A DNA stretch of 64,000 nt from an uncultured Solirubrobacteraceae bacterium (GTDB lineage: Bacteria; Actinomycetota; Thermoleophilia; Solirubrobacterales; Solirubrobacteraceae). A program made the position numbers and the translations under genes. How positions within the stretch are numbered: position 1 is the first letter of the stretch; each line of letters starts with the position of its first letter. Where the stretch lies: assembly GCA_964588985.1 (NCBI GenBank), contig CAZPQW010000005.1, forward strand, positions 64,001 to 128,000, written 5' to 3'. Shown one piece after another: positions 32,535-46,548 of the stretch. The notes beneath the pieces were generated by a model. It saw only the letters and a program-made list of their open reading frames with translations, was not told the DNA's origin and did no database searches.

Positions 32535-33888
32535 GCACGTCCGCCATCAGAGAAGCCGGCACCTCATGGTTGTCGCTCAGCGCGAGCACCGCCTCCGGGT
32601 CGCCCTCGCCGGGCGCGTATCGCGGCAGCACCTCCTCCACGAGACGCCGCACGACCGCGTGCGCGCTCCAGCGCTCGTCGCGTGCGAGCAGGCGGATCGC
32701 GGCGAGGCTCTCCTGCTCCTCGCCGACGCACTCGAACGGCTTGTGCCCGCCGGTCGCGGTGAGCAGCGCGAAGCCGTCGAACTGCCGCTCGTCGTCCAGC
32801 AGATCGCTCCCGAAGATCTCGCGCAGATGCTCGGGCGTGGAGAACGGCGCGAGCGCGAGGAACACGAACCGGCACTTGGGGCAGTCGCGGCACCACGACG
32901 CCGCGCGCAGCGCCGGGTCGAGCCGGAAGATCGCGTTGCAGCTGGTGAACGCCGCGTGGTAGGCGTCCATGCGCGCGAACGCGCGCGCGATCGCGAGCTC
33001 CGAGGCGGGGCGCAGCAGCGAGAACACCCGGAGTCCCGGCGCCACCTCGGCGACGGCCGCGCTCAGCAGCCGCTCGGCGCGCAGGCCCTTGCTGAACTGG
33101 TGGTTGACGTCCACGCCGTCCCAGCTCACGTTGCCGGCGGAGGCGGAGCGCTCGTTGGCCATCGCCACCGCGTCGAACCCGTTCAGCGCGGCGCTCAGCA
33201 GCGCCACGCACGACACGATCGCGGTGATCGGCACGTGACCGTTGATCGCGCCAGCGTCGTTGAGCGCCCTCAGCCCCGGGTCCAGGCGACGGCGCGCGAG
33301 CAGGTGAGGAAGCCCCGCCACCGCGACCGTGCGCGCGATCGGAGGTGCGTCGCCGATCGAGAACAGCGCCGGCTCGCGCCCGGAGCGGCGGGCGATCTCG
33401 ATCGCCACCGCGGAGTCCTTGCCACCGCCAACCGGCACGAGCATCCGCCCCACGTCCTCATTTTCAGGAGCGACAGGCACATAGCGACTCCCGTCCGCCC
33501 GAAAGCGCGGTCGCGGCAGCGCCGCCAGGTTGTTCGTGTACGCCAGCTCGCCGAGGCCCTCCGAGTAGAGCGCTTCGAGCAGGGCGCCCGTCGCGGGTGG
33601 CGGCGCGCCCGTCTCGAGGCTCACGCTCGTCGGCAGCGCGGTCTTGAAGTAGCTCACCCCGGCGACCCAGTGCAGCAGCGACAGCAGCCCGTCCACGCGC
33701 TCGACGTCGGCGTCGGTCAGCTCGCCGTCGATCGGCAGGTCGAACTCCTCCACGAAGAAGATCTCCTCGTCGAGCGCGTAGCGGAGCGTGACGCGTCCAC
33801 GCGCGTCGAGCTCGCGTGCAAGGAAGCGAAACGCTCCAAACGCCGTCGGGTCGAACAGCGCGGGGGCACGCTTGGCGTCGGCTGCCAT
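32515..33888 (-). CDS. murL: UDP-MurNAc-L-Ala-L-Glu epimerase MurL
   Basis: VSYFKT, PVGGGKDS (PP-loop), NGHVPIT, ANERSAS, VNHQFSK, WCRDCPKCRFVFL, KPFECVGE; leaderless TACGCT-N6-ATG start. Confidence 0.82.
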   Translation of the reverse strand: MAADAKRAPALFDPTAFGAFRFLARELDARGRVTLRYALDEEIFFVEEFDLPIDGELTDADVERVDGLLSLLHWVAGVSYFKTALPTSVSLETGAPPPATGALLEALYSEGLGELAYTNNLAALPRPRFRADGSRYVPVAPENEDVGRMLVPVGGGKDSAVAIEIARRSGREPALFSIGDAPPIARTVAVAGLPHLLARRRLDPGLRALNDAGAINGHVPITAIVSCVALLSAALNGFDAVAMANERSASAGNVSWDGVDVNHQFSKGLRAERLLSAAVAEVAPGLRVFSLLRPASELAIARAFARMDAYHAAFTSCNAIFRLDPALRAASWCRDCPKCRFVFLALAPFSTPEHLREIFGSDLLDDERQFDGFALLTATGGHKPFECVGEEQESLAAIRLLARDERWSAHAVVRRLVEEVLPRYAPGEGDPEAVLALSDNHEVPASLMADVRAVLGA

Positions 33889-33923
33889 GCCCCCAGCGTA
33901 GAGCGAGCTTCGGCCGCGCGTAC

Positions 33924-34535
33924 CTATGCGTACTCGAGATCGGGCTCGGGCTCGCCCGTGAACAGCCACGGCACGGCGTTGCCGATCACCTGACCGCGGA
34001 AGCGCTTGCGCGCCCCGTACACCACCCACGTCGTGTCCACCGCGCCGTAGGTCTCCTCCACGCGCAGCACGTCCGGGTATTCGCTCGCATAGTGCAGGTG
34101 GGTGAGGCCGGCGTGGTACTCGCCGGCGAGCAGGTGGCGCGCGACGACCGGCTTGGAGGGCTCGTCGATCAGCTCCTCCCAGCGGGTCAGGTCGGGGTAT
34201 CCGCGCGTCGCCGCCACGATCCCCATGCTCCTCGGGGGATCCGGCGCGTCGTGGCGGACGAGCAGCGCGAGCTCCTTGGTGGGGTAGATGAACGTGTCGA
34301 TCACGAACACCTCTTTGTAGTAGCGCTCGGTGACGAGGTGGACCTGCGTGTGCGCGCTGCACTGCACGAGGAACGTGTCGGGCTCGTCGCGCACGCGATG
34401 GATGTCGCCGAGCAGGTCTTCCGAGAGCTCGATCCGCACCGACGTCAGGCCCTGCAGCTCGAGGTAGCGCTTCAGCGCGTTCTCGTGACAGGTGCCCGTC
34501 GGCCCCAGCGTGATGAACGTCGGCTGCGCGCTCAT
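33924..34535 (-). CDS. BacA/AerD-like prephenate decarboxylase (prephenate dehydratase fold, no ACT domain)
   Basis: TLGPTGT start, ARHLLAGEYHAGLTH, TTWVVYG; 203 aa, similar in size and layout to Bacillus BacA as recalled. Confidence 0.65.
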   Translation of the reverse strand: MSAQPTFITLGPTGTCHENALKRYLELQGLTSVRIELSEDLLGDIHRVRDEPDTFLVQCSAHTQVHLVTERYYKEVFVIDTFIYPTKELALLVRHDAPDPPRSMGIVAATRGYPDLTRWEELIDEPSKPVVARHLLAGEYHAGLTHLHYASEYPDVLRVEETYGAVDTTWVVYGARKRFRGQVIGNAVPWLFTGEPEPDLEYA

Positions 34536-34822
34536 CGCTCCTCCGCGATCGCCGCCATCAGCTCGTCCTCCATCCTGCAGGTGGCATCGATCAGCAGCTC
34601 GAACAGCGCAGCGGTGAAGTCCGCCGGGAGCCTCACCTCCGCGCCGCGATCGAGATAGCGCGCACGGACCTGCTCGACGCGGCCGGGCTGCATCATCGGG
34701 ATGTCGTTCGCGCGCTTGTGGAGGGCTATCTCGCGGCAAGTCTCGAAGCGCTCGCCGAGCAACCGCACGATCTCCTCGTCGAGCTCGTCGAGGCGCGCGC
34801 GAAATGGCTCGAGGCCGCTCAT
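34532..34822 (-). CDS. AroQ chorismate mutase, PapB/CmlD (4-amino-4-deoxychorismate mutase) type
   Basis: RARLDELD...HKRANDIPMMQPGRV...LIDATCRMED. Confidence 0.8.
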   Translation of the reverse strand: MSGLEPFRARLDELDEEIVRLLGERFETCREIALHKRANDIPMMQPGRVEQVRARYLDRGAEVRLPADFTAALFELLIDATCRMEDELMAAIAEER

Positions 34823-35781
34823 TCGTCGCGCCCTCCGAGCAGGCCGGTCGCGAACGCGTGACTGCACGCGGCGAGCGTGTCGAGGTCGTAGCCGCCCTCC
34901 TGCACCACGCACACCGGCAGCTGCGAGTCGGCCAGCAGACGTCCGATCTCCGCGAAGATCGCCGGGCTGAACGTCCAGCAGCCATGCGGATCTCCACGCA
35001 CCGTGTCGTAGCCGAGCGACAGCACGAGCACGGCCGCGGACTGCGCGATCTCGTCGATCGACGCCGCCGCGGCGGCGAGGTAGCTGGCTTCGCTCGGAGC
35101 CTCGGCGAAGGCGACAAGCCGCTCGCGAGAGCTCAGCGGCTCGACCGTTCCCGTCGGCGAGTTCGCCACCGGCGAGGCGTGCAGCGAGTGCAGGCTCGTG
35201 TCGCTCATCAGCGCGGCGATCGCGGCGGTGCCGTTCGGGTAGTGGATGTCGAGGTCGAGGATCCCGATCGGTCCGACGCCCCCCTCGCGCAGCGTCTGCA
35301 CGGCGGCGGCGGCGTTGTTGAGGTAGCAGTAGCCGCCGAGCCAGCCCGGGCCGGCGTGATGTCCCGGCGGGCGACACAGCGCGTAGGCGTAGTGCGAGCC
35401 GTCGAGGATCCGGCGCGCGGCCGTGATCGCCGTGCGCACTCCCTCATACGCCACCGCCGCCACGCCCGCGCTCACGGGCGTGTCCGGGGCCATGCCGGGA
35501 GCGGCGAAGCGCTCCATCAGCACCGGCTCGCCCGAGCGGACGCGCATAAGCGCCTCGAGGTAGTCGCGCTCGTGCAGCGCGCTCACCGTCTGGCGCACCT
35601 GCTCGAAGGCCGCGTCGGCCTGGGCGGTCAGAACACCCGGATGCTGCGTCAGGCCAGCGCGCAGCTCCGACAGCCGCCTGTCGTGATCGCGGCCCTCGAG
35701 CCTGCGCCCGTGCGCGTCGAGGATCCACGGCTGGGCGTGCGCCGAGCCCGGACGTTGCTCGATCGCGAGCATCTCGCTCAT
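34819..35781 (-). CDS. Histone-deacetylase / acetylpolyamine amidohydrolase family enzyme
   Basis: RPPGHHA, GGYCYLNNAA, DLDIHYPNGT, SLGYD, QEGGY. Confidence 0.88.
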   Translation of the reverse strand: MSEMLAIEQRPGSAHAQPWILDAHGRRLEGRDHDRRLSELRAGLTQHPGVLTAQADAAFEQVRQTVSALHERDYLEALMRVRSGEPVLMERFAAPGMAPDTPVSAGVAAVAYEGVRTAITAARRILDGSHYAYALCRPPGHHAGPGWLGGYCYLNNAAAAVQTLREGGVGPIGILDLDIHYPNGTAAIAALMSDTSLHSLHASPVANSPTGTVEPLSSRERLVAFAEAPSEASYLAAAAASIDEIAQSAAVLVLSLGYDTVRGDPHGCWTFSPAIFAEIGRLLADSQLPVCVVQEGGYDLDTLAACSHAFATGLLGGRDE

Positions 35782-36293
35782 GGGATCCGCCTGCGCATGC
35801 GCGGACCGTTTGCCGTGAAGCCGTTGCTCAGGTAGAAGCCCTCGGTCGCGGAGAAGTTCGAGAAGCTCTCGCGCGGAAGCCCCACCTCGATGCGTTCCAT
35901 GTGTCGGCCGCGCGTGAGCTCGACGAGCGCCTCCACCAGTCCCGCCCCGACCGCCTGCCCGCGCCAGGCTGGATCGACCCACAGGTCCTGGATCAGCGCA
36001 TAGGACCCCGGCACGTGGATCGCCATCTGCCAGCTCGCCGCGAGCACGCCCACGATCGCCACACGCGCCTGCGCCACGAGCACCGCGCCCTCCCAGGGGC
36101 TTGCGATCAGCGTGCGCGTCGCATCCTCCATCGCCGCGGTGCTCGTCGGCGTCCCATCGAGCTCCAGCAGCAGGGCCCTCACCGCACCGGCGACCGCCTC
36201 GACGTCGTCGCCGGTGGCGGCGCGCACGCTCCATCCGAGACTCGAAGCCGCATCCGAAGCGGACGCCTGCACCTCGGCGGCGTGCTCACTCAT
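35778..36293 (-). CDS. GNAT family N-acyltransferase
   Basis: IQDLWVDPAWRGQAVGAGLV motif A, FYLSNGF; ATGA overlaps at both ends. Confidence 0.85.
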   Translation of the reverse strand: MSEHAAEVQASASDAASSLGWSVRAATGDDVEAVAGAVRALLLELDGTPTSTAAMEDATRTLIASPWEGAVLVAQARVAIVGVLAASWQMAIHVPGSYALIQDLWVDPAWRGQAVGAGLVEALVELTRGRHMERIEVGLPRESFSNFSATEGFYLSNGFTANGPRMRRRIP

Positions 36294-38470
36294 AACGCTC
36301 CCGCGGCCGCCATGTGCGAGTGCGGCTCGCGCTCCACGACCCACGCGTCGGGGGAGTCGCTGCCGGTCACCGCTCGCGCGACCGCCGCCATCGGCGCGCG
36401 CGCCTTCAGCAGCAGCTCCTCGAACTCCTGCTCGGGGTCGGACTGGGTGACGATCGCGCCGCCAGCACCGATCGTCGTCAGGCCGGGGCGCATCACGATC
36501 GTGCGGATCACGATGCTCAGGTCGACGCTCCCGTCGAGCCCGAAGTAGCCGAGCCCGCCCGAGTACACGCCGCGGGCGACGCGCTCGATGTCGTCGATGA
36601 TCTCCATAGTGCGCAGCTTCGGCGCTCCGGTCATCGAGCCGCCGGGGAAGCACGCGCGCACGCAGTCCACCGGCGTGCGCCCCTCGGAGAGCACGCCGTT
36701 GATCGTGGACGTCATCTGGTGCACCGTGCGGTAGCGCTCGCCGGCCATGAACTCCGACACGCGCACGCTGTCCACCTCGCACACGCGGCCGAGGTCGTTG
36801 CGCAGCAGGTCCACGATCATGAGGTGCTCGGCGAACGTCTTTTCGTCGTTCATCAGCTCGGTGCGCAGCGCCTCGTCGACGACGGCGTCGCTCGCGCGCG
36901 GCGCGGTGCCCTTGATCGGACGCGCCTGCACGTTGCGGTCGCGGTCGACCGACAGGAAGCGCTCGGGCGAGGAGCTGACGACGGCCATCTCCCCGAGCTT
37001 GAGGTAGGCGGCGAACGGCGCGGCGTTGCTGCGACGCAGTCCGCAGTAGAGCTCGAGCGGGTCGGGGCTCGCGGCCGTGGAGATGTGGTCGGTGAGACAC
37101 ACCTCGTAGGACTCGCCCGCCGCGAGCGCCGCCTGACAGCGCGCGATGTCGGCGAGATACTGGCGGCGTCCGCGGCCGCAGTGGAACACGACGGGCGCGC
37201 CCGCATCGTCCCCGTCGGTGGCGCCGGACTCCGGCGTCGATCCGTCATCCTCCCGCTGCTGAGACGCCGAGGAGATCATCTCGCTCACGATCGCCTCGGT
37301 CTCCACGAGCCAGCGCTCCGCGTCGTGCCCGTCCTCCGCGCACAGCGCGAACAGGTGCGTGCGCCCGGCGACGTGATCCACCGCGATCACGCGATTGGCG
37401 AGCATCATCACCGCGTCCGGCATGTCCGAGCGGTGGACGTTGGGTGAGCCGCAGTCGGCCTTGCACTCGTAACCGAGATAGCCGACGAAACCGCCGAGCA
37501 AGCCGCGCGCCACACCCTCCGGCGGCTGCACAGCGCCGAGCGCGAGTTCGCGGTCGAGCACGTCGAAGATCGAGGCGTGCTCCACGACGCTCGTGCCGGC
37601 GCGATCGATCGTCACCGAGGCGGACTCCACGTCGTATTCGAGCACGCAGCGCTCCTCGCCCATCGTCGTGCCCATGTAGGAGCTGCGCGCGAGGCGCGTC
37701 GGCGCGTCGGCGCTGTCGAGCCAGAAGGCGTGATCGGCGTCGGCGAACAGGCGTCGGAAGACCGCCTCGGTCGGAGCCTCGCCCTCGATCGTGCGCACCT
37801 TCAGGCGCATCCGCGAGTCGCCCACGTGGCGAACGGTCGGCCGCGCGGAGGGCGTCACGAGCCGCCTCACTCCGGGCGAGCGAGTCGGCCTGTTCGCACG
37901 CGCCATCTTGTAGAAGTTCTCGATCAGCGCGGGGCCGTGCTCGGTCGAGATCGACTCGGGGTGGAACTGCACGCCCCAGATCGGCCGGTGGCGATGCTCG
38001 ATGCCCATCACCACGCCGTCCTCCGTCCATGCCGTCACGCGTCCCTCCGGTCCCATCTGGCCGGTTACCGCGAGCGAGTGGTAGCGCACGACCGAGAAGT
38101 CCTGGGGAATCCCCTCGAACAGGCCGCTGCCGAGATGGCGCACGTGACTCACGCGGCCGTGCATCGGCAGCGGCGCCGCCCCAACCTCACCGTTGAGCAG
38201 CCGGCCGAGCCCCTGATGGCCGAGGCAGATCCCGAGGATCGGCACGTCGCTGAAGCGCAGGATGTCCGAGCACACGCCGAAGTCGTGCCAGCGATCGGGG
38301 TGCCCTGGGCCGGGGGAGATGACGATCGCGTCGAAGTCCCAGCGCGACAGCGCTCCCCACGAGACGGTGTCGTTCTGGATCACGATCGGCTCCTCGCCCG
38401 ACACGGCGGCGAGGATGTGAAACACGTTGTACGTATAGGAGTCGTAGTTGTCCACCAGCAGCGTTGTCAT
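36290..38470 (-). CDS. pabAB: Fused PabA-PabB aminodeoxychorismate synthase (PapA/CmlB type)
   Basis: DNYDSYTYN, SPGPG, GICLGHQ, QFHPES; then SSPERF, PIKGT, EHLMIVDLLRNDL, FPGGSMTGAPK. Confidence 0.93.
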   Translation of the reverse strand: MTTLLVDNYDSYTYNVFHILAAVSGEEPIVIQNDTVSWGALSRWDFDAIVISPGPGHPDRWHDFGVCSDILRFSDVPILGICLGHQGLGRLLNGEVGAAPLPMHGRVSHVRHLGSGLFEGIPQDFSVVRYHSLAVTGQMGPEGRVTAWTEDGVVMGIEHRHRPIWGVQFHPESISTEHGPALIENFYKMARANRPTRSPGVRRLVTPSARPTVRHVGDSRMRLKVRTIEGEAPTEAVFRRLFADADHAFWLDSADAPTRLARSSYMGTTMGEERCVLEYDVESASVTIDRAGTSVVEHASIFDVLDRELALGAVQPPEGVARGLLGGFVGYLGYECKADCGSPNVHRSDMPDAVMMLANRVIAVDHVAGRTHLFALCAEDGHDAERWLVETEAIVSEMISSASQQREDDGSTPESGATDGDDAGAPVVFHCGRGRRQYLADIARCQAALAAGESYEVCLTDHISTAASPDPLELYCGLRRSNAAPFAAYLKLGEMAVVSSSPERFLSVDRDRNVQARPIKGTAPRASDAVVDEALRTELMNDEKTFAEHLMIVDLLRNDLGRVCEVDSVRVSEFMAGERYRTVHQMTSTINGVLSEGRTPVDCVRACFPGGSMTGAPKLRTMEIIDDIERVARGVYSGGLGYFGLDGSVDLSIVIRTIVMRPGLTTIGAGGAIVTQSDPEQEFEELLLKARAPMAAVARAVTGSDSPDAWVVEREPHSHMAAAGAL

Positions 38471-40140
38471 GAGACCTCCTCCAGGCCGATTCCGCGCGCG
38501 CCGCGGTCGAGCAGCGTGTGCACCACCTGCTCCACCGGAGCGCTGCGCTCCTCCTCCAGGTACCAGCGAGCGAAGTGCGTCACGTAGCGGGCGAGCGGGC
38601 CGGCGTCGAGGCGCTCGACCGCGAGGCGCAGATGGCGGCGGTGCAGTTCCGCCTGCACGACCGCGAAGCGGTAATCCGGTTCCTCCGCCGGCCGATCCGC
38701 CAGCTCGTGCCCGCGACCCTCGTGCGCGCGCGCCTGCACCAGCTCCCACCCCGGGCTTTCGCGTGTGTCCAGCAGCTTGCCGGGATGGAAGTCCACGCGC
38801 GGGGTCACCGGGCGCGGCACGAAGTAGCCCAACGCCACCTGACCCGCGATCCGCTCCGCCGAGCCGAGCCGGCGCACGACGTCCTGCCCGCGCGGGTCCT
38901 GCTCGATCTGCTCCTGCAGCCGCTCGATCAGGTCGTCGATCAGCAGCGCCCCCTCCTCGCTCGAGGCGACCGCGCGCTTCTGGTGGGAGACCATCCCGTG
39001 GAAGATGTCGCCGGTCGGATGCATGCCTTCGCCGCCGGTGCTCATCAGGCGCGCCATCAGCTGGCGTCTGCAGGTGACGTGTGCGACCCACTCCGCACCG
39101 CACACCTGTACCGAGGTCATGCCCTCCAGGCCCGGCGCCGCCATCCAGTACGCGAGCGCGCGCATGTGCTGGGTGGGCAGATCGTCGCCGCGCACGAGCG
39201 GGAATTCGTCGAAGTCCTCGCGCTCGGTTGGGTAGATCACCACGCCGTCCTCGCGCCGGCGCAGCAGCCCTTCGCGCAGGCCGCACGCGGTCAGCTCGGC
39301 CGCCTCGGAGAGGAAGTCCGACTCGAAGAACACGCGGTCGAAGGCGATTCCCAGCCGCTGCAGCGTCTTGCGCTGCCCCGCGATCACCCACGCGCGCGTC
39401 TTGTACCAGAGCTCCAGCGCCTCGCGGTCCCCGGAGAGCACTCGCCGCAGCAGCTGGTCGGCGTCGTCGTCGCGCATCGTCAGCTCGCGCGTGAGGGAGT
39501 CCTCGGGCTGCTCGGTGGAGCCACCGTTGAAGGATCGGCCCGCCGCGACGTACTCGGCGTAGCAGCAGCCCACGAAGTGGTCGCTCTTCTCGTTGCGGTC
39601 CGGCCACGCCTGCGCGTGGCGGCCGCTCTTCATCACCCCGGCCATCGCCTCGCCCATGCTGCGCCCGGCGTCTGAGATCAGCGCGCGGCGCTCGACCTGG
39701 CCGCCGGCCTGGGTCAGGGCCGCGGCGAGCGCGTTGCCGATCGCGAGGTTGCGCAGGTGCCCGACGTGCAGCGCCTTGGTCGCGTTGGCGTCCCAGAACT
39801 GCACCGAGAAGCGTCGCCCGCGCGCGAGGTCGGAGAGCCGCTCCTCGCCGCTGTCGCCTTCCCGCAGCGCGGTCCCCTGAGTTTCGATCCAGTCGTCTGA
39901 CAGCCGCAGCTCCACGCCCGCGTCGGTGCGCGTCGCGCGCTCTACCCACGGCTCGCGTTCGATCCGCTCGAGCGCGTCGAGCGATGCCGCGTCATCGCGC
40001 CAGACGGGTGAACGTGGGACGAGCTTGACGTCGAAGCGGGCGTTCGGACGCAGCGGCGTGCGGGCAGCCCACAGTCCGCCCGTCTCGCCCTGCTCGGGCA
40101 GTTCCTCGAAGTAGTCGAAAAGGTTGGTGGCCGTCAGCAT
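38467..40140 (-). CDS. Arginyl-tRNA synthetase paralogue with altered specificity residues
   Basis: NATKALHVGHLRN (HIGH), FDRVFFES, HGMV, shortened DALR-like domain; KMSKS loop degenerate, no C-terminal Met. Confidence 0.85.
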   Translation of the reverse strand: MLTATNLFDYFEELPEQGETGGLWAARTPLRPNARFDVKLVPRSPVWRDDAASLDALERIEREPWVERATRTDAGVELRLSDDWIETQGTALREGDSGEERLSDLARGRRFSVQFWDANATKALHVGHLRNLAIGNALAAALTQAGGQVERRALISDAGRSMGEAMAGVMKSGRHAQAWPDRNEKSDHFVGCCYAEYVAAGRSFNGGSTEQPEDSLTRELTMRDDDADQLLRRVLSGDREALELWYKTRAWVIAGQRKTLQRLGIAFDRVFFESDFLSEAAELTACGLREGLLRRREDGVVIYPTEREDFDEFPLVRGDDLPTQHMRALAYWMAAPGLEGMTSVQVCGAEWVAHVTCRRQLMARLMSTGGEGMHPTGDIFHGMVSHQKRAVASSEEGALLIDDLIERLQEQIEQDPRGQDVVRRLGSAERIAGQVALGYFVPRPVTPRVDFHPGKLLDTRESPGWELVQARAHEGRGHELADRPAEEPDYRFAVVQAELHRRHLRLAVERLDAGPLARYVTHFARWYLEEERSAPVEQVVHTLLDRGARGIGLEEVS

Positions 40141-40148
40141 CTTGGTGA

Positions 40149-40168
40149 GGTCGGCGGTGGAGCCGACC
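40149..40168 (-). other. 7-bp hairpin between tRNA 3' end and synthetase start
   Basis: GGTCGGC-tccacc-GCCGACC, no U-tract. Confidence 0.55.
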
Positions 40169-40170
40169 GA

Positions 40171-40243
40171 TGCACCAGCCGGGGCTCGAACCCGGATCGA
40201 CGGCGTTTAAGGCCGCTCCCTTAACCGATTAGGGCACTGGTGC
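40171..40243 (-). tRNA. Atypical tRNA, anticodon UAA, short (4-nt) variable loop
   Basis: GCACCAG-TG-CCCT-AATCGGTTA-AGGG-A-GCGGC-CTTAAAC-GCCGT-CGAT-CCGGG-TTCGAGC-CCCGG-CTGGTGC-A: all four stems pair; U8, A14, G18G19, U33, TTCGA present; CCA not encoded. Confidence 0.9.
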
Positions 40244-40389: not shown

Positions 40390-41817
40390 TTGAGCATGCA
40401 CGAGGAGCAGCACATGTCTCTGTCTCTCCCCCCTGGCCCACGCATGCCGAGCGCGCTTCAGGCGCTCGGCTGGGCGCTGCGACCGCTGCCGTTCATGGAG
40501 CGCTGCAACAACCATTACGGTGAAATCTTCACCCTGCGCGTTCGTCGCGGTCGTCCCTGGGTTGTCCTCACGGATCCGGCGGATGTCAAGCTGCTGTTCA
40601 CGACCGACGCGAGCGCGGTGCGCGCGGGAGCGGTCGCGGCCAGCCCGGTACTCGAGCCGCTGCTGGGCTCACGGTCGGTGATGCTGCTCGACGAGCCCGA
40701 GCACATGACACACCGCAAGCTGATGCTGCCCGCGTTCCGCATCACGCGCATGAGCGCCTATGACAACCTGATCACCCGCGTGGCCCGTCGAGAGATCTCG
40801 AAGTGGCCGATCGGCGAGCCGTTCGCGCTGTGGCCGCGCATGCAGGCGATCACCACAGAGGTGATCCTCCGCGCCGTGTTCGGCCCTCTGGAGGAGCCCC
40901 GGTTGGAGCATCTGAGCGGCCTGCTGAGACAGATGACCGCGCAGCTGAACGATCCGCGCCGCCTGGCGATCCTGACCGCCGTGGGCCCGGGGCGACTCTC
41001 TCACAGCGAGCGACTTCGCTCGGTGATGCGCCCGGTGGAGAGCGCGGTGCTCGAGGAGGTGCGCCGACGGCGTGCTTCACCCAACGGCGCAGCCTCGCAG
41101 GACATCCTCGCGATGCTCGAGCGCGCACACGACCAGGGTGGCTCGCCGATGGACGAGAAGCAGGTGCGCGACGAAGTCCTCACACTGCTCTCCGACGGTC
41201 CGACCGCCACCTCGCTCGCGTGGGCATTCGAGTGCCTCATGCGCCATCCCGAGAAGCTCGCCCGACTGCGCAAGGAGGCCCTCGCGGGTCGCGAGTACAG
41301 CTATGCGGACGCGGTCGCCAAGGAGACGCTGCGCCTGTGCCCGGTGGTGCCCCTGGTGATGCGCGAGCTGACCCAGCCGATGCGCATCCGCGGCTACACG
41401 CTGCCCGCGGGAGTCATCGTCGCCGCGGGCGTTTACCTGATTCACCGTCGCGAGGACATCTATCCGCAATCGCGCACTTTCCTACCTGAGCGCTTCCTCG
41501 ACCAGAACGCCCCCACCTACGCGTGGATTCCCTTCGGCGGAGGAGTGAGACGCTGCCTCGCGGCCAACTTCGCCCAGCTCACGATCAGGCGAGTGATGCA
41601 GACCGTGCTCACCGAGGTGGACCTGCAGGCGGTCTCCACATCCGGATCCGAGCACGCGGCGAGAAGCTCAGTCGCGTTCGTCCCCAACGAGCAGGCGATG
41701 GCGATCGTCACTCGACGGATCGGATCTCCCACCGACGAGCGGCTCGAGGATCCGGTCGGCGACGAGACCGAGCGAGCCGAGGGTCGAGAATCCGGGGCCC
41801 TGGCCGAGGCCGGCTAG
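40390..41817 (+). CDS. Cytochrome P450 with non-canonical I-helix
   Basis: PPGP, KETLR (ExxR), PERF, PFGGGVRRCLA heme ligand; I-helix LLSDGPTATSLAW; start may be a later ATG (MSLSLPPGP). Confidence 0.9.
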   Translation: MSMHEEQHMSLSLPPGPRMPSALQALGWALRPLPFMERCNNHYGEIFTLRVRRGRPWVVLTDPADVKLLFTTDASAVRAGAVAASPVLEPLLGSRSVMLLDEPEHMTHRKLMLPAFRITRMSAYDNLITRVARREISKWPIGEPFALWPRMQAITTEVILRAVFGPLEEPRLEHLSGLLRQMTAQLNDPRRLAILTAVGPGRLSHSERLRSVMRPVESAVLEEVRRRRASPNGAASQDILAMLERAHDQGGSPMDEKQVRDEVLTLLSDGPTATSLAWAFECLMRHPEKLARLRKEALAGREYSYADAVAKETLRLCPVVPLVMRELTQPMRIRGYTLPAGVIVAAGVYLIHRREDIYPQSRTFLPERFLDQNAPTYAWIPFGGGVRRCLAANFAQLTIRRVMQTVLTEVDLQAVSTSGSEHAARSSVAFVPNEQAMAIVTRRIGSPTDERLEDPVGDETERAEGRESGALAEAG

Positions 41818-43014
41818 CCCGGGCACCTGCAGCAGCGGGCGCACGCCGCTGAGCTCCAGGAATCGAGCCATGTTCACTTCTTCGCGTTTGTCGCCTTCCC
41901 AAAGCGGCCCGGTCACCCGTTCGATCTCGCGCCGCGCCGGATCGGACAGCAGACTGCGCAGCTGCTCGAGCAGATCGAAGCCGGTCGAGTTGATCACGTA
42001 GTCGTGGCGCGCCGTCTCGGCGCCCGCGACCGACTCGTAGTTGACGCACACCCCCTCGCCGTTCGGAGCGGACGCGATGCGCTCGACGCGCCCGAGCACG
42101 AAGCGACAGCGCTCGTCCCACGCGAAGCGCGCGAGACGCTCCGGCCCGAATACTCCGCGATCGGTGTGATTGATGAAGTCGCGACGCGTATCGACGCTGA
42201 GCGTCTCCCAGGCGACATTGTCGGGATTGGAGAAGACGCGATTCTCCAAGAAGCTCTCCAGCCGACTCAGAGGCAGATTGGAGGTGTACACCGATATGTA
42301 CGCGTCGGGACGCAGGTTGCGCACGAATTCGATGCAGCTGAGCGCGCTCTCCCCGCCACCCACGATCGCGATGTCGGAGCTCTGCTCGACCGGCGCGTGC
42401 GCGATCGCGATGCGCCCGCTGTCGCAGTCGAGCACGCGCTGCGCGATCTGGGGATCATGGGGGATGCCGCGATTGACCCCGGGGCCGGTCAGCGCGAACG
42501 CCCCGCACGCGTACTGGGACGCGGCGGGCGCACCGGCGACGTCCACGATCCAGCGTTCGCCGTCGTCGCTCAGCGACAGTCGTGCGACACGCCCGTTGAC
42601 GAGCGTCACTCCCTCGGTGGCGCGAGTGAGCACCCACGCAAGGTATGCGCCGTATTCGCGGCGCTGCACGGACGGTTCGCCGGCGTCCACCCAGCGTGAG
42701 TAGTCGCCTTTCTCGATCAGGTAGCGATGCCAGGAGAACGCCATCGACGCGATGTCCACTTCCGCTCCGGCGGAGCCGAACGCGCATGCGCTCTGGTACG
42801 GGTAGCCGACGTCTTTGGAGGGGGTGATCGCGAGCACCTCCCTGCTCGTGGTGATGCCGTTTCCGTCGACCCACGCGGCCGCCGGCCCGGTCGCCTCGAC
42901 GAGCGTCATCCTGATCGGACCCAGGCCGAGACTGTTGAGCACGTGCACCTTCATCGCGATCGCGGTGCCCTTGGCTCCGGCGCCGACGACGAGCAGGTCG
43001 GTGTTGTTCACCAC
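41668..43014 (-). CDS. MbtG/NbtG-like flavin-dependent lysine N6-monooxygenase
   Basis: VVGAGAKG, KDVGYPY, VGGGES, ENRVFSNP, TDRGVF, GLGQGPGFSTLGSLGLVADRIL; GTG start behind GGAGG. Confidence 0.85.
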   Translation of the reverse strand: MVNNTDLLVVGAGAKGTAIAMKVHVLNSLGLGPIRMTLVEATGPAAAWVDGNGITTSREVLAITPSKDVGYPYQSACAFGSAGAEVDIASMAFSWHRYLIEKGDYSRWVDAGEPSVQRREYGAYLAWVLTRATEGVTLVNGRVARLSLSDDGERWIVDVAGAPAASQYACGAFALTGPGVNRGIPHDPQIAQRVLDCDSGRIAIAHAPVEQSSDIAIVGGGESALSCIEFVRNLRPDAYISVYTSNLPLSRLESFLENRVFSNPDNVAWETLSVDTRRDFINHTDRGVFGPERLARFAWDERCRFVLGRVERIASAPNGEGVCVNYESVAGAETARHDYVINSTGFDLLEQLRSLLSDPARREIERVTGPLWEGDKREEVNMARFLELSGVRPLLQVPGLAGLGQGPGFSTLGSLGLVADRILEPLVGGRSDPSSDDRHRLLVGDERD

Positions 43015-43093
43015 GTCGCAGATCCTCCGGTCGAAGCTTGTCGTGCTCTCGTGCAAACGGCACGCCGAGTTATAGGGAGAAGGGCGACGTGGC

Positions 43094-43672
43094 TCAATGT
43101 GAGACCGGAACGCTCCCCCCGCAGGTCGGGCAAACCACCGTGTTCGCGTCGGCATCCGGCGTGGACGGATCGCTCCCGTCGTTTCCATCACCGGCTTTGA
43201 GCGCACGGCGGCGGCCGCGCAGTTCCGCGCGGAGGTCCGCGACCGACAGTTTGTCGGCGCTCGCTCGCGCCAGCCAGTGGTCCTGGATCGCGACATCCAG
43301 CGCCGCGACCGTCGCGTGGTGACTCCAGGAGAGATTCTCCCTACGTCGGGAGATGTCGAAGCGCGACGCGACGTACACCATGTTCATCAGGGATTGGACG
43401 TCGTATCCGGTGAGCTTCACCGCTCTCGTGTAGCGCTCGCCGAAGCGCGCGTTGCCGTAGTTGATCCAGTCGCCCAGCCACCATTGGCTGCAGCGACCGA
43501 TCTCGCCGAAGCGACGCCCCAACGCCGACCACTCGGCCAGGCCGACCTCGCCGCCGGGAACCCAGCCCACCTGTGTCAGCTCTGGAGTAGTCCGCGCCGG
43601 CCTCACATGAGGTCGTTCACGCGCAGTCGCTTGCCCGGCACCGTCTGTCGTCTGTGACAAGGCGGAAGTCAC
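43094..43672 (-). CDS. LmbU family transcriptional regulator
   Basis: SQWWLGDWINYG, YVASRFDISRRRENLSWSHHATVA, QDHWLARA. Confidence 0.85.
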   Translation of the reverse strand: MTSALSQTTDGAGQATARERPHVRPARTTPELTQVGWVPGGEVGLAEWSALGRRFGEIGRCSQWWLGDWINYGNARFGERYTRAVKLTGYDVQSLMNMVYVASRFDISRRRENLSWSHHATVAALDVAIQDHWLARASADKLSVADLRAELRGRRRALKAGDGNDGSDPSTPDADANTVVCPTCGGSVPVSH

Positions 43673-43864: not shown

Positions 43865-45166
43865 TCAGTCGTTCGCGGTGACGGTCTCGAGCAGCTCCGC
43901 GAAGCGCTCACGCGAGCGCGCGCGGCGCGTCGGCAGGTGTTCGCTCGGCACACCGTCCGCGGGTGGCGCGTAGCCGTTGAGGATGTGGCGCGCGACGGAC
44001 TGGCGGTGCACCTCGTCGGGACCGTCGTAGATGCGCGCGGCGCGCGCGAAACGATACATCTGCTCGAGCGGCAGGTCGGTGGAGTAGCCGAGCGAGCCGT
44101 GCAACTGCAGCGCCCGATCGACCACGTCGTGGAGCACCTTCGCGCCGTAGAACTTGATCAGCGCGACGTCGGTGCGCGCGGCGCTCGCGCCCTGTGTGTC
44201 CATCACCCACGCGGCGTGCAGCGTCATCAGGCGTGCGGCCTGCATCTCGGCGGCGCTGTCGGCGATCCAGTTCTGCACGGTCTGCTTCTGCGCGAGCAGC
44301 GAGCCGTGGGCTTCTCTATATGTGGCGCGCTCGCACATCATGTCGAACGCGCGGCGCGCGACCCCGAGCCAGCGCATGCAGTGGTGGATGCGCCCGGGCC
44401 CGAGGCGGTGCTGGGCGAGCACGAAGCCCTCGCCCTCGCCGCCGAGCAGCGCCTCCGGGCCGACGCGCACGTCGCTGTAGAGGATTTCCGAGTGCCCGCC
44501 GTAGCCGCCGAAGTGCTCCGCGGGGTGCTCCATCGTGGGGACGTCGCGCACGATGTCGACGCCCGGCATGTCACTCGGGACGATGAACATGGACGCGCGC
44601 TGCGACGGTCGCGCGTCGGGGTTGGTGACGGCCATCACGATCAGGAAGTCGGCGATCGAGCCGTTGGAGGAGAACCACTTCTTGCCGTCGAGCACCCAGC
44701 CGTCGCCGTCGCGCACCGCGCGCGTCTTCAGCTGCGTGGGGTCGGAGCCCGGCGTGTGCGGCTCGGTCATCGAGAACGCGCTGCGCAGGTCGCCCGCGAG
44801 CAGCGGGTGCAGCCAGCGGTCCTTCTGCTCGGGCGTGCCCGCCATAGCGAGGATCTCCGAGTTGCCGGAGTCCGGCGCGGCGTTGCCGAACGCGAGCGGC
44901 GCGATCGGCGAGGTGCCGAGGATCTCGTGCATCAGCCCGAGCTTCACCTGCCCCATCCCCTGGCCGCCGAGCTCGGGCGGCAGATGCGTCGCCCACAGCC
45001 CGCGCGCCTTGACCTGCTCCTGCAGCGGCGCGATCGCACGGCTGAGGCCATCGAGACCCAGCTCCGGCCAGATCGCCTCCAGCGGCCAGATCTCGGTGCG
45101 CACGAACTCCGCCATCCAGTCGAGCTGCTCCTGGTAGTCGGCGTCGGTGGAGAAGTCCCAGCTCAT
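43865..45166 (-). CDS. Acyl-CoA dehydrogenase
   Basis: APDSGNSEIL, SAFSMTEP, GKKWFSSN, RLGPGRIHHCMR, RIYDGPDEVH. Confidence 0.93.
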   Translation of the reverse strand: MSWDFSTDADYQEQLDWMAEFVRTEIWPLEAIWPELGLDGLSRAIAPLQEQVKARGLWATHLPPELGGQGMGQVKLGLMHEILGTSPIAPLAFGNAAPDSGNSEILAMAGTPEQKDRWLHPLLAGDLRSAFSMTEPHTPGSDPTQLKTRAVRDGDGWVLDGKKWFSSNGSIADFLIVMAVTNPDARPSQRASMFIVPSDMPGVDIVRDVPTMEHPAEHFGGYGGHSEILYSDVRVGPEALLGGEGEGFVLAQHRLGPGRIHHCMRWLGVARRAFDMMCERATYREAHGSLLAQKQTVQNWIADSAAEMQAARLMTLHAAWVMDTQGASAARTDVALIKFYGAKVLHDVVDRALQLHGSLGYSTDLPLEQMYRFARAARIYDGPDEVHRQSVARHILNGYAPPADGVPSEHLPTRRARSRERFAELLETVTAND

Positions 45167-45272
45167 GGCGTGGCGTCCTTTCGTTCGGGGCCTGGCGGTG
45201 CTGTGCCTGCAAGCGTACGTGCTATCAACCCAAGCGCAACGCTTTCCACCATCTCGAACAAGGAGCCGCCAC

Positions 45273-45668
45273 ATGAGCACCACCGAGCAGCTGGTCACGG
45301 GCGTCGACTTCGTCTCTGTACCCACCGGCGATCTCGCCGCCTCCGTCGAGTTCTACGGCGACACGTTGGGCCTGCGCCGCTCGGTGTACATGCCCGACCG
45401 CAACTTCGCGGAGTTCGAGACCGGCAACCTCACACTGAGTGTCGTTCACGCGGAGAAGATGGGGATCCCGCACTGCGTGAACCAGAACGCGATCGCGCTG
45501 CACGTCGACGACGTCGAAGCGACCCGCGCGACGCTCGAAGCACGCGGCGTGAGCTTCCAGGGAGACACGTTCGACACGAGCGTCTGCCACATGGCGTTCT
45601 TCACCGACCCCTACGGCAACGCGCTGATGCTCCACCACCGCTACGCACCGCGCAACCCCGAGTCCTAG
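45273..45668 (+). CDS. VOC/glyoxalase family protein
   Basis: SVEFYGDTLGL, LHVDDVE, FFTDPYGNALMLH; AAGGAG SD. Confidence 0.9.
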   Translation: MSTTEQLVTGVDFVSVPTGDLAASVEFYGDTLGLRRSVYMPDRNFAEFETGNLTLSVVHAEKMGIPHCVNQNAIALHVDDVEATRATLEARGVSFQGDTFDTSVCHMAFFTDPYGNALMLHHRYAPRNPES

Positions 45669-45708
45669 ACGCACCTACACGTCGCCACCGCGCCCTTATA
45701 TTGAGCGG

Positions 45709-46548
45709 ATGGCTGGGCCCGGACCATTGGAGATGTCGCTCCTGCCGGGAGCGCGCGAGCTGCTCGACGCGCACGCCGCGGCGCTGCCCCAGCGCGACGA
45801 TCTTTGCGGCGCGTTCTGCGGCGCGCTGGCGCTGAGCGCGGCGGGGTTCCGCGAGCGCGGCGGGGAGCCCGTAGATCAGGACGCGGTGGGGCTGGCCGCG
45901 GGGAGCATCGTGTCGACAGCCGGCGCGCGCGATCCGGGCACGCTCCCGCACGGCGAACCGGGCCGGCGCGACTACCGCCTGGCGATCCCCGAGATCGAGG
46001 ACGCCGACGTGTCCGGCACGACGTGCTCGGGTGTGATCGACGCGATCGCGGAGCTCTCCGACGGCGCGCTGGAGGCGATCCCTTTCAGCGGCCCGTGGAC
46101 GGCGGAGACGCTCGGCGGCCTCTACGACGTGGCCGCCGAGCTGAAGCGCCCGGTGACGTTGATCGCGAACTTCGCCACCCACCACCTGTGGGGCGGGTCC
46201 GCTCGGTTCGACCAGCTGCTGGGCTATCTGCTCGACGGCGAGCGAGCAGGGCCTGAGCCGGACTGGCGCGTGGGCCACTTCGCGTGCGTGTTCGGACGCG
46301 TGCGCGGGCCGCGCGGGAACCTTTACGGCGTCGCCGACACCTACCCCGCGCTCGGCGACCATGGCGTGCACATGCAGCCGCAGGAGCGTCTCGCGGCGGC
46401 GCTCGAGCGGCGCGACATGCCGGCGGGCGGGATGATCGTGGTGGCGTTTGCCGACGACGCGGGCGCGATCCGCGCGGGCGCGGGCGCCGTGGGACTGAGC
46501 GAGGGCCTGTGGGACAACGGGACCGTGACGCAGGCGACGCTCGGGTGA
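45709..46548 (+). CDS. Papain-like (C39/phytochelatin-synthase-like fold) putative cysteine hydrolase
   Basis: PQRDDLCG...GHF...ADTY candidate Gln/Cys/His/Asp set. Confidence 0.55.
   Translation: MAGPGPLEMSLLPGARELLDAHAAALPQRDDLCGAFCGALALSAAGFRERGGEPVDQDAVGLAAGSIVSTAGARDPGTLPHGEPGRRDYRLAIPEIEDADVSGTTCSGVIDAIAELSDGALEAIPFSGPWTAETLGGLYDVAAELKRPVTLIANFATHHLWGGSARFDQLLGYLLDGERAGPEPDWRVGHFACVFGRVRGPRGNLYGVADTYPALGDHGVHMQPQERLAAALERRDMPAGGMIVVAFADDAGAIRAGAGAVGLSEGLWDNGTVTQATLG

Follow-up and report, generated by a model that had tools for sequence, protein, structure and literature searches.

A class I tRNA with a UAA anticodon and an ArgRS-like paralogue that look like a private pair heading a conserved metabolic operon in Solirubrobacterales

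The 64,000-nucleotide stretch of an uncultured Solirubrobacteraceae genome analysed here (hereafter the window, meaning the whole stretch) holds a transfer RNA (tRNA) in which a UAA anticodon is carried by a class I body, followed on the same strand by a gene for a paralogue of arginyl-tRNA synthetase (ArgRS). The question that this locus raises is what such a tRNA is for, which enzyme charges it, and whether its product goes to the ribosome or elsewhere. Together the two genes look like a private pair that stands apart from the standard tRNAs and synthetases, at the head of a conserved metabolic operon in soil Solirubrobacterales. Judged from sequence, the function would lie between that of a metabolic carrier, which we regard as about an even prospect, and that of a ribosomal mis-inserter, which is a tentative alternative, and the other readings are minor. 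The elements on which the argument turns are the following:

40171..40243, minus strand: tRNA, class I, anticodon UAA, A73, 4-nt variable region (ARAGORN, Rfam, covariation, relatives)
40141..40170, minus strand: 30-nt spacer from the tRNA 3' end to the ATG of the ArgRS-like gene (sequence)
38467..40140, minus strand: ArgRS-like class I synthetase paralogue, 557 aa (Pfam, TIGR00456, PDB alignments, AlphaFold (AF2), Foldseek)

An earlier note, made from the letters of the window, had described a tRNA with a UAA anticodon on a class I body at this position, and both ARAGORN and Rfam bear this out, on the minus strand. ARAGORN called this tRNA only in the 64 kb, with a length of 73 nt and the anticodon taa, and RF00005 matched it over positions 1-71 of its 71 with 65.2 bits against a gathering threshold of 29 (E=4.7e-13). 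Read as the reverse complement, the acceptor stem comprises 7 bp (GCACCAG/CUGGUGC) and the D stem 4 bp (CCCU/AGGG), and the D loop, AAUCGGUUA, includes G18G19, U20 and U20a. The anticodon stem (GCGGC/GCCGU) has a G-U as its first pair and leads into the loop CUUAAAC, which provides U33, the UAA anticodon and A37. The variable region is CGAU, 4 nt long, the T arm reads CCGGG-UUCGAGC-CCCGG, and the remaining landmarks are A73, A15 and U48; CCA is not encoded. The stems, loops, variable region, T arm, A73 and A15/U48 listed in the earlier note were all found in the sequence.

The cloverleaf is the minimum-free-energy fold of this RNA (-31.1 kcal/mol), which is weak evidence by itself, as 8 of 200 shuffled sequences did equally well (z=-1.87). 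Comparison of homologues provides strong evidence against chance. Across 33 distinct homologous tRNA sequences, 99.7% of the cells were paired and changes on both sides were seen in 8 of the 21 pairs; none of 500 shuffles reached any of the measures, and slid controls gave 31-51% pairing. Mean column identity among these sequences was 91%, with the acceptor stem and D arm nearly invariant. This was the covariation check that had been proposed with the earlier note, and since all four stems are held by compensatory change, its statement that the intact pairing speaks against decay can be kept. The tRNA is real, conserved and under structural selection, and its anticodon is not fixed.

The tRNA is also additional to the standard set. 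The genome that contains the window (3.41 Mb in 48 contigs, 68.3% G+C, 48 ARAGORN tRNA calls) has a canonical long-arm tRNA-Leu(UAA) of 87 nt at C1:258520-258606, as well as Leu tRNAs with the anticodons CAG, GAG, CAA and UAG; the five canonical Leu tRNAs measure 84-88 nt. Canonical-looking long-arm UAA matches were present in 5 of 5 relatives checked. More broadly, matches resembling canonical tRNA-Leu(UAA) and tRNA-Thr(UGU) were present in 5 of 5 genomes whichever special anticodon each carried, these being short-pattern matches judged by eye over the stretch from anticodon to T arm rather than called by a tRNA finder. A BLAST search with the window genome's own tRNA-Thr(UGU) returned other isotypes only. 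Because a long-arm tRNA-Leu(UAA) is encoded elsewhere in the genome, the class I copy is an addition, and the idea that the short-arm form is simply the lineage's sole tRNA-Leu(UAA) falls away. As a separate observation, ARAGORN reported outside the window a 97-nt 'tRNA-???' with a four-base anticodon (ggag) at G000:C27:31243-31339; its sequence has room for a UCA anticodon and a long extra arm, and it may be a selenocysteine or an interrupted tRNA.

According to the part of PMC9976931 available to us, the bacterial Leu identity set includes A20a, and the bacterial Arg set includes A20, C35 and U or G at position 36. By the rules in that part of the source, the tRNA has A73, A15:U48 and G18G19 in common with bacterial tRNA-Leu, and lacks the long arm (its variable region being 4 nt) and A20a, as position 20a is U. 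The Arg features are absent as well, with U20, A35 and A36 in their place. The forms of this tRNA with the anticodons UGU and AGU that occur in related genomes (see below) have G35 and U36 and are likewise without the Arg set. The view that the tRNA fits neither Leu nor Arg identity, put forward from the window alone, therefore stands. The closest tRNA in the same genome is tRNA-Arg(CCU), identical at 51 of 73 positions (the runner-up at 49), and this nearness is no more than a hint of ancestry. In annotation pipelines the tRNA appears as 'tRNA-Leu' or 'tRNA-Thr' and the enzyme as 'arginine--tRNA ligase', probably a misnomer in both cases.

One genome per prokaryote species was scanned, which gave 237 relatives of the ArgRS-like enzyme, and the best 80 loci were kept, all of them in metagenome-assembled genomes of Solirubrobacterales. 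The tRNA occurs in 75 of these 80 loci, as 76 copies with 33 distinct sequences. The five loci without it are L007, where the gene lies at a contig start, and L038, L043, L058 and L086, on short or cut contigs. Most loci have the tRNA directly upstream of the enzyme gene on the same strand, and in 10 it is found about 4 kb downstream on the opposite strand, still within the operon. Protein identity of the enzyme across the linked loci is 52-91%. Of 301 genomes sampled from the order, 33 have the enzyme, spanning 7 of 81 genera, a count that includes G610, which has a distant copy only. A pattern for the tRNA matched 26 of the 301 genomes, all among the 33 with the enzyme, and the 3 close-copy genomes that it missed carry variant copies, so that the tRNA is present in 29 of 29 close-copy genomes. 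The pattern found no tRNA without the enzyme gene in these 301 genomes. The tRNA is thus strictly linked to the ArgRS-like gene. The enzyme family is rare outside a few genera; a profile search across the phylum (E<=1e-40) found it only in the window's own genome among 401 genomes.

Two further observations concern this linkage. The tRNA was considered as an integration site or part of a mobile element, and this was rejected because the locus is syntenic across families. In a genome of the window's own genus, the ArgRS-like gene (G651:C1:269966-271724) is broken by several in-frame TGA stops and the adjacent tRNA(UAA) is intact.

The position of the tRNA could also mean that it is a tRNA-shaped processing signal, or a decaying tRNA gene, that marks the 5' end of the operon messenger RNA (mRNA) for RNase P or RNase Z and is not aminoacylated. 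In the window, the spacer contains an unconserved local GC hairpin. The spacer of relatives is not conserved either, and the tRNA stands 3 to about 130 nt before the first open reading frame (ORF); the smallest distance is the 3 nt of L064 and L065, at which cleavage would leave a nearly leaderless mRNA. No conserved hairpin or riboswitch was seen between tRNA and ATG in the related loci compared, and consensus scans for promoters and terminators gave 0 matches. A mere signal, however, would not account for compensatory change in the anticodon and D arms and for conserved loops, or for the retention of the tRNA in the 10 loci where it lies about 4 kb away on the other strand, or for two tRNA copies in L070. 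We consider a processing role very unlikely. Co-transcription of the tRNA with the ArgRS-like gene is itself probable from their arrangement. Among the sequencing runs listed for the locus none is an RNA run; a single one marked 'RNA?' is probably DNA and yielded a 6-kb contig from a relative.

The ArgRS-like gene starts 30 nt downstream of the tRNA, on the same strand. Its 557-aa product matched PF00750 weakly in Pfam (27.9 bits, residues 109-174 only) and scored 83.9 bits with TIGR00456, short of the equivalog cut-off of 261.65, which the normal ArgRS on contig C4 of the same genome passes with 390.1 bits. An AF2 model from a 65-sequence alignment reached pLDDT 90.6 and pTM 0.92; an earlier model from 15 close sequences was poor (pLDDT 50.1) and was discarded. 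In a Foldseek search with the model, ranks 1-20 were all ArgRS, with alignments that span the whole protein, N-terminal and helical C-terminal domains included (TMq 0.51-0.74), and CysRS and MshC ranked far lower. The enzyme retains the HIGH motif (HVGH, 125-128) and the preceding lysine K122. Its residues Q114, Q324 and A328 align, in both PDB phmmer and profile alignments, with E148, Y347 and D351 of yeast ArgRS, which we take to be the residues that hold the guanidinium group. None of the three replacements varies among close family members, and across the wider paralogue family they are the consensus. As modelled, the protein has an ArgRS fold with a changed arginine pocket. Because the HIGH motif and K122 are kept and the guanidinium residues are replaced, the enzyme looks catalytically alive and not arginine-specific.

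In biosynthetic clusters, an additional synthetase copy is a known means of resistance, and the gene here could in principle be a self-resistant or back-up ArgRS with a tRNA-Arg-derived substrate, in an operon that would make an ArgRS inhibitor. A natural family of ArgRS inhibitors has been reported (10.64898/2025.12.02.691738, in the part accessible to us). Against such a role are the replacement of three guanidinium residues, a TIGR00456 score at a third of the cut-off, and the lack of an Arg anticodon, without which the tRNA could not restore Arg decoding. A resistance function is therefore highly improbable.

The anticodon behaves differently from the rest of the tRNA. Among the 80 loci it is UAA in 69 and AGU in 6, and UGU is found in 13 of the 29 sampled close-copy genomes; UAA and UGU both occur within one genus. 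All AGU loci belong to Conexibacteraceae or Baekduia, and in them the enzyme is duplicated, the copies (76% identical) flanking the tRNA. In a tree of the enzyme, obtained by a quick method with midpoint rooting and long outgroup branches, the UGU-linked copies branch first, and the UAA and AGU copies form a supported clade in which AGU is one nested clade. The anticodon has changed three or more times on a body that did not change, and the codons read by all the anticodons seen are rare and end in A or U. As observations on individual loci, L039, L040, L042, L049 and L083 (Conexibacteraceae, Baekduia) each carry two ArgRS-like copies, 76% identical, of which the operon copy has no adjacent tRNA and the other lies divergently to the AGU tRNA. 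In L070, two AGU tRNA copies that differ from each other lie within 4 kb.

Distant paralogues of the enzyme (35-38% identical) were examined in five places, and 3 of them adjoin a tRNA with the anticodon UCU and U20; one UCU tRNA has its T arm and variable region in common with the tRNA in the window. The neighbours of these distant paralogues include D-lysine 5,6-aminomutase subunits, an aminotransferase, ATP-grasp ligases, a methyltransferase and an ABC-F protein, which is a neighbourhood of amino-acid secondary metabolism. For instance, in L091 (genome G676) and L094 (genome G650) the paralogue lies beside the alpha and beta subunits of D-lysine 5,6-aminomutase and an aminotransferase, and G650 has both a distant copy and an operon copy.

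These anticodons bear directly on the idea that the tRNA is an ordinary or bldA-like reader of a rare codon, charged by LeuRS here and by ThrRS in the UGU and AGU lineages, with the ArgRS-like gene a mere neighbour. The tRNA does have A73, A15:U48 and G18G19, and its UGU and AGU forms carry G1-C72, C2-G71, G35 and U36, which we take to be the determinants of E. coli ThrRS. For ThrRS, the available part of PMC9976931 gives only the acceptor pairs and the anticodon; for LeuRS, the same part of the source has it that the E. coli enzyme needs neither the anticodon nor the long arm. However, two or three synthetases would have to share a single body whose acceptor stem and D arm are nearly invariant, position 20a is U and not A, and linkage to the ArgRS-like gene is strict in both counts (29/29 and 26/26). 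The operon genes contain almost no TTA to decode, canonical isoacceptors already exist, and extra decoding predicts more ACA in UGU-type genomes, where less was observed. The earlier note had kept an odd, bldA-like Leu tRNA in reserve; with Thr anticodons on the same body in sister lineages, that reservation is now unlikely to apply, and we judge the ordinary rare-codon tRNA quite improbable as a whole.

Behind the ArgRS-like gene, and on the other side of the tRNA, lie the further conserved genes of the locus:

36290..38470, minus strand: fused PabA-PabB aminodeoxychorismate synthase (PabAB), 726 aa (Pfam, TIGR00553)
35778..36293, minus strand: GNAT acetyltransferase, 171 aa (Pfam Acetyltransf_7, Acetyltransf_1)
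34819..35781, minus strand: HDAC-family, acetylpolyamine-amidohydrolase-like deacetylase, 320 aa (Pfam Hist_deacetyl, E=5e-44)
40390..41817, plus strand: cytochrome P450, divergent from the tRNA (Pfam p450, E=4.5e-53)
41668..43296, minus strand: lysine N6-monooxygenase-like flavoenzyme (Pfam Lys_Orn_oxgnase, NAD_binding_9)

Among the 80 loci, PabAB is present in 77, the P450 in 73, the GNAT protein and the deacetylase in 71 each and the N-hydroxylase in 64. The ArgRS-like gene is translationally coupled to the genes for PabAB, the GNAT protein and the deacetylase; the ATG of PabAB overlaps the ArgRS-like stop codon as ATGA, and that of the GNAT gene overlaps the PabAB stop in the same way, a junction conserved in most loci. 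The PabAB gene was recovered from a 1219-aa mixed-frame ORF and matched the Pfam domains GATase, Anth_synt_I_N and Chorismate_bind, with 339.3 bits for TIGR00553 (pabB) against a cut-off of 328.4. Two candidate genes, 'orf261' (37245-38030) and a 440-aa 'GNAT', were rejected because they are wrong-frame readings of the stretch that encodes PabAB. In the window, the PabAB gene has TTA as its last sense codon (36290-36295, minus strand), inside the TTATGA overlap with the GNAT start; this TTA is not conserved in the other loci.

The best PDB relatives of the deacetylase are acetylpolyamine amidohydrolases (E=1e-32). The start codon of the P450 is uncertain, with ATG candidates near 40396 and 40414, and no NCBIfam model scored above its cut-off for this protein. 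The ORF of the flavoenzyme extends to 43296, with a likely start near 43020, and its only solved relative is 4D7E, 'L-Lys monooxygenase' (E=1.1e-63, residues 8-426).

Further genes surround the operon. Just beyond it (31191-34362, minus strand) lie a MurD-like Mur ligase and a protein matching the Xanthomonadales MurL model with 423 bits against a cut-off of 700; MurL is the UDP-MurNAc-L-Ala-L-Glu epimerase. The pair looks like the alternative MurD2/MurL route to peptidoglycan D-Glu, here in an actinobacterium, and is present in only 15-16 of the 80 related loci. On the other flank (43865-49032) are acyl-CoA-dehydrogenase-like, DUF6885 and glutamine-synthetase-like proteins and an M20 peptidase, which occur in the closest relatives only (4-18 of 80 loci). 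The best NCBIfam model for the glutamine-synthetase-like protein is gamma-glutamylputrescine synthetase, below its cut-off, and these genes may extend the pathway by gamma-glutamylation of an amine.

The explanation that we prefer, with moderate confidence and from sequence evidence, is that of a dedicated tRNA/ligase pair, probably charged with an amino acid other than arginine and feeding the pathway of the operon. The tRNA is a real, conserved and additional gene linked to that of the enzyme, its anticodon switches between lineages, and the enzyme combines an ArgRS fold with a changed pocket at the head of an operon of known structure; from these we infer the charging, the identity of the amino acid and the user of the product. 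The proposal starts from the biochemistry of the parent enzyme. ArgRS, GluRS, GlnRS and class I LysRS require bound tRNA for amino acid activation (PMC2034488, in the part available). It follows that an ArgRS paralogue in which the amino-acid pocket has changed would need to retain its own tRNA and bring it along. The pair would descend from an ArgRS/tRNA-Arg pair, and tRNA and enzyme would come from one transcript. A dedicated tRNA must also escape the housekeeping ArgRS, and the loss of A20 and C35 would achieve this escape.

In the preferred explanation, the enzyme most likely esterifies the tRNA with an amino acid other than arginine, which would probably be derived from lysine or from aminodeoxychorismate and be made by the neighbouring enzymes, whose predicted chemistry covers lysine N-hydroxylation, aminodeoxychorismate formation, acetylation and deacetylation, and P450 oxidation. 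The aminoacyl-tRNA would then serve as an activated donor or carrier for the operon's pathway and not for general translation. As the enzyme would no longer read C35, the anticodon would be free of identity constraint and could have moved among the readers of rare A/U-ending codons (UCU, UGU, UAA and AGU), where a leak into the ribosome would do the least harm. TRNA-dependent activation together with escape from ArgRS would account for the strict linkage, for acceptor, D and T arms that are frozen, for the altered pocket and for the free anticodon.

Several observations weigh against a purely metabolic carrier. All features needed at the ribosome are present in the tRNA, namely the 7-nt anticodon loop, U33, A37, G18G19 and the T loop UUCGAGC. 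Additionally, no Fem-type, L/F-transferase-type, cyclodipeptide synthase or PEARL enzyme was recognisable among the conserved genes, so that the step after charging is without a candidate, which is the main gap. Finally, the codon ACA is depleted about 3-fold where the copy of the tRNA reads ACA, which suggests that the tRNA meets the ribosome. This depletion was seen within one genus (g298), from sampled 20-kb pieces: ACA accounted for 51 of 103,514 codons in the UGU-type genomes G674 and G536 (0.49 per 1000) and for 146 of 97,880 in the UAA-type genomes G584, G605, G683 and G635 (1.49 per 1000), the largest difference of all 61 codons (pooled Fisher p=3e-13). In a sister genus, two UGU-type genomes had ACA at 0.27 and 1.07 per 1000, with 1.0 in genomes of the family that have no cluster. 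The ACA rate of all 4 UGU-type genomes is below that of all 4 UAA-type genomes. None of the explanations tried accounts for the ACA depletion in the g298 comparison.

These observations bring in a mistranslation or recoding pair of the kind proposed for ProRSx and tRNAProX, in which the ArgRS-like enzyme would charge the tRNA with a non-cognate, possibly non-canonical residue, to be delivered by EF-Tu at UUA (at ACA or ACU elsewhere), at a low level or only while the operon is switched on. The anatomy is that of the ProX system, with an odd conserved body, AGU among the anticodons, an adjacent paralogue and a metabolic-looking operon; the ribosome-relevant features are all retained, all anticodons read rare A/U-ending codons, and ACA is depleted in the UGU-type genomes compared. 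In the operon genes the matching codon also avoids columns of its standard residue, as seen in six gene families from 86 loci: TTA in UAA-type loci falls in such columns at 1 of 11 sites (mean Leu fraction 0.10), ACA in UGU-type loci at 0 of 2 and ACT in AGU-type loci at 0 of 3, whereas controls ran at 0.30-0.67, and the same codons in other types together with synonymous codons gave 0.30-0.84.

The remaining codon data do not favour mistranslation. TTA is by far the rarest codon of the window's genome, with at most 108 in 761,307 codons (0.14 per 1000), an upper bound, as many are wrong-frame ORFs of a crude gene caller. It is equally rare in relatives without the cluster (0.04-0.11 per 1000), so its rarity says nothing about the tRNA. 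ACT is undepleted in AGU-type loci (1.3 vs 1.55 per 1000), canonical Leu(UAA)- and Thr(UGU)-like tRNAs are there in 5 of 5 genomes, and one or two evolutionary events among related genomes underlie the codon contrasts. In the six operon gene families of the 86 loci, no in-frame TTA, ACA or ACT site was found to be conserved, and the operon genes are nearly free of TTA, with 0 to 13 per 6,671 to 54,305 codons per family, none conserved. Furthermore, TTA stands at conserved Leu positions of essential enzymes in the window's genome. Six TTA sites in real genes of that genome were compared with 28-29 orthologues each from genomes without the cluster:

polyprenyl synthase, TTA beside the DDxxD motif: Leu in 28 of 29 orthologues
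GlmS: Leu in 22 of 29 orthologues (one row from genome G422)
ATCase/OTCase: Leu in 28 of 29 orthologues
chorismate-binding enzyme, second site: Leu in 10 of 29 (plurality)
MiaB-like enzyme: Leu in 2 of 28 (variable)
chorismate-binding enzyme, first site: Leu in 0 of 29 (variable)

Leu is thus the majority residue at 3 of the 6 sites, and the mean Leu fraction (0.52) is as for other Leu codons. The TTA site of a DUF2600 gene was left out, as only paralogues were available for it, and three 'TTA ORFs' in a 7.3-kb stretch were rejected as wrong frames by a DNA-level orthologue search. A reassignment of UUA throughout the genome was rejected because TTA occurs at invariant Leu sites of essential enzymes. 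UUA is not reassigned, and low-level or conditional reading by the tRNA is possible. The evidence on translation is mixed overall, and a mistranslation pair is a tentative, somewhat unlikely explanation.

A natural orthogonal pair that expands the code at a sense codon is improbable. Here a non-canonical amino acid made by the operon would be loaded on the tRNA by the ArgRS-like enzyme and inserted by the ribosome at the rarest codons in competition with the normal tRNA; it would be derived from lysine (e.g., N6-hydroxylated or acylated) or from aminodeoxychorismate, with UUA as the codon here and ACA or ACU in the sister lineages. Such a pair would explain why the anticodons match rare codons, why ACA is purged where UGU occurs and why the matching codon avoids the columns of its standard residue.

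To our knowledge, very few private synthetase/tRNA pairs exist beyond the canonical twenty: the pyrrolysine (Pyl) system, the selenocysteine (Sec) machinery and ProRSx/tRNAProX. Each known private pair has taught how the code can change. If the tRNA described here is a metabolic carrier, it would represent a new use of tRNA in a pathway and show what an ArgRS-type enzyme keeps when its substrate changes; if it reaches the ribosome, it would be a case of natural sense-codon ambiguity or expansion. Either way, it is a ready-made candidate for an orthogonal pair. The literature searched, mostly open-access main text, yielded no account of an ArgRS-like paralogue that has a tRNA to itself, and nothing relevant on a dedicated tRNA in a biosynthetic cluster. 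A review of synthetase duplication (PMC9437257) says nothing about ArgRS paralogues: the word 'ArgRS' is absent from it (0 occurrences), and 'arginyl' appears once, in a reference.

Comparison with known systems places the pair more closely. The window's enzyme resembles canonical ArgRS in its full-length fold and in the HIGH motif and lysine, and the tRNA resembles tRNA-Arg in that its nearest relative in the genome is Arg(CCU) and that UCU tRNAs accompany the distant paralogues. The pair differs from ArgRS/tRNA-Arg in the absence of A20 and C35, in the replacement of yeast E148, Y347 and D351 by Q, Q and A, and in its score below the equivalog cut-off. Streptomyces bldA is a canonical long-arm tRNA-Leu(UAA) and the sole reader of UUA; the likeness lies in the UAA anticodon, the high-G+C actinobacterial host and TTA as the rarest codon, whereas the tRNA here is class I, additional, linked to a synthetase paralogue and equipped with Thr anticodons in sister lineages. 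The pyrrolysine system comprises pylT, pylS and pylBCD, with PylRS a class II enzyme, a CUA anticodon that reads a stop codon, and target genes with a conserved in-frame UAG. As in that system, a tRNA, its own synthetase and lysine-modifying enzymes are encoded together here, but the anticodon reads sense codons and varies with the lineage, and the operon genes lack a conserved in-frame site. Judged by the features that define them, the Leu, Arg and Pyl families do not include this pair.

Synthetase paralogues and spare tRNAs devoted to metabolism are a further point of comparison. MshC and the MetRS-like domain of hydrazine synthetases, which act on N6-hydroxylysine, are synthetase-like ligases of small molecules that work without a dedicated tRNA. 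The non-proteinogenic staphylococcal tRNA-Gly serves cell-wall synthesis, is charged by the normal GlyRS and has altered D and T loops. The pair described here would share with these the dedication of a synthetase paralogue or spare tRNA to metabolism, and it shares with the hydrazine pathways a Lys N6-hydroxylase as neighbour. Unlike in these cases, enzyme and tRNA both look private here, and the tRNA has canonical loops.

In the ProRSx/tRNAProX type, a single tRNA body bears several non-cognate anticodons and is encoded next to a distinct isoform of a synthetase, and the same arrangement was found here. TRNAProX (ProA, ProN, ProT) and ProRSx are described from Streptomyces and Kitasatospora, in 46 organisms (PMC10404621 and PMC11415595, in the parts accessible to us). 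In those parts, as here, a conserved body carries different non-cognate anticodons according to strain, AGU included, and adjoins a distinct synthetase isoform in a metabolic-looking operon (murG, GT4, WbqC and lmbE in the case of ProX); both systems are patchy among Actinomycetota, and pipelines name the tRNA by its anticodon. The differences are equally clear. The enzyme here is derived from ArgRS, of class I, and that of ProX is a ProRS, of class II. The enzyme here has lost the amino-acid-binding residues of its parent, so that the charged residue is probably not the parental one. The tRNA has U33, A15:U48 and A21 where that of ProX has A33, A34 and A15:A48, and G1:C72 in place of the C1:G72 of Pro identity. 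Its anticodons are UAA, UGU and AGU, plus UCU, and the operon encodes an aminodeoxychorismate synthase, a GNAT protein, a deacetylase, a P450 and a Lys N-hydroxylase. Compared with the 46 organisms of the ProX system, the enzyme family described here extends over 237 species-level genomes.

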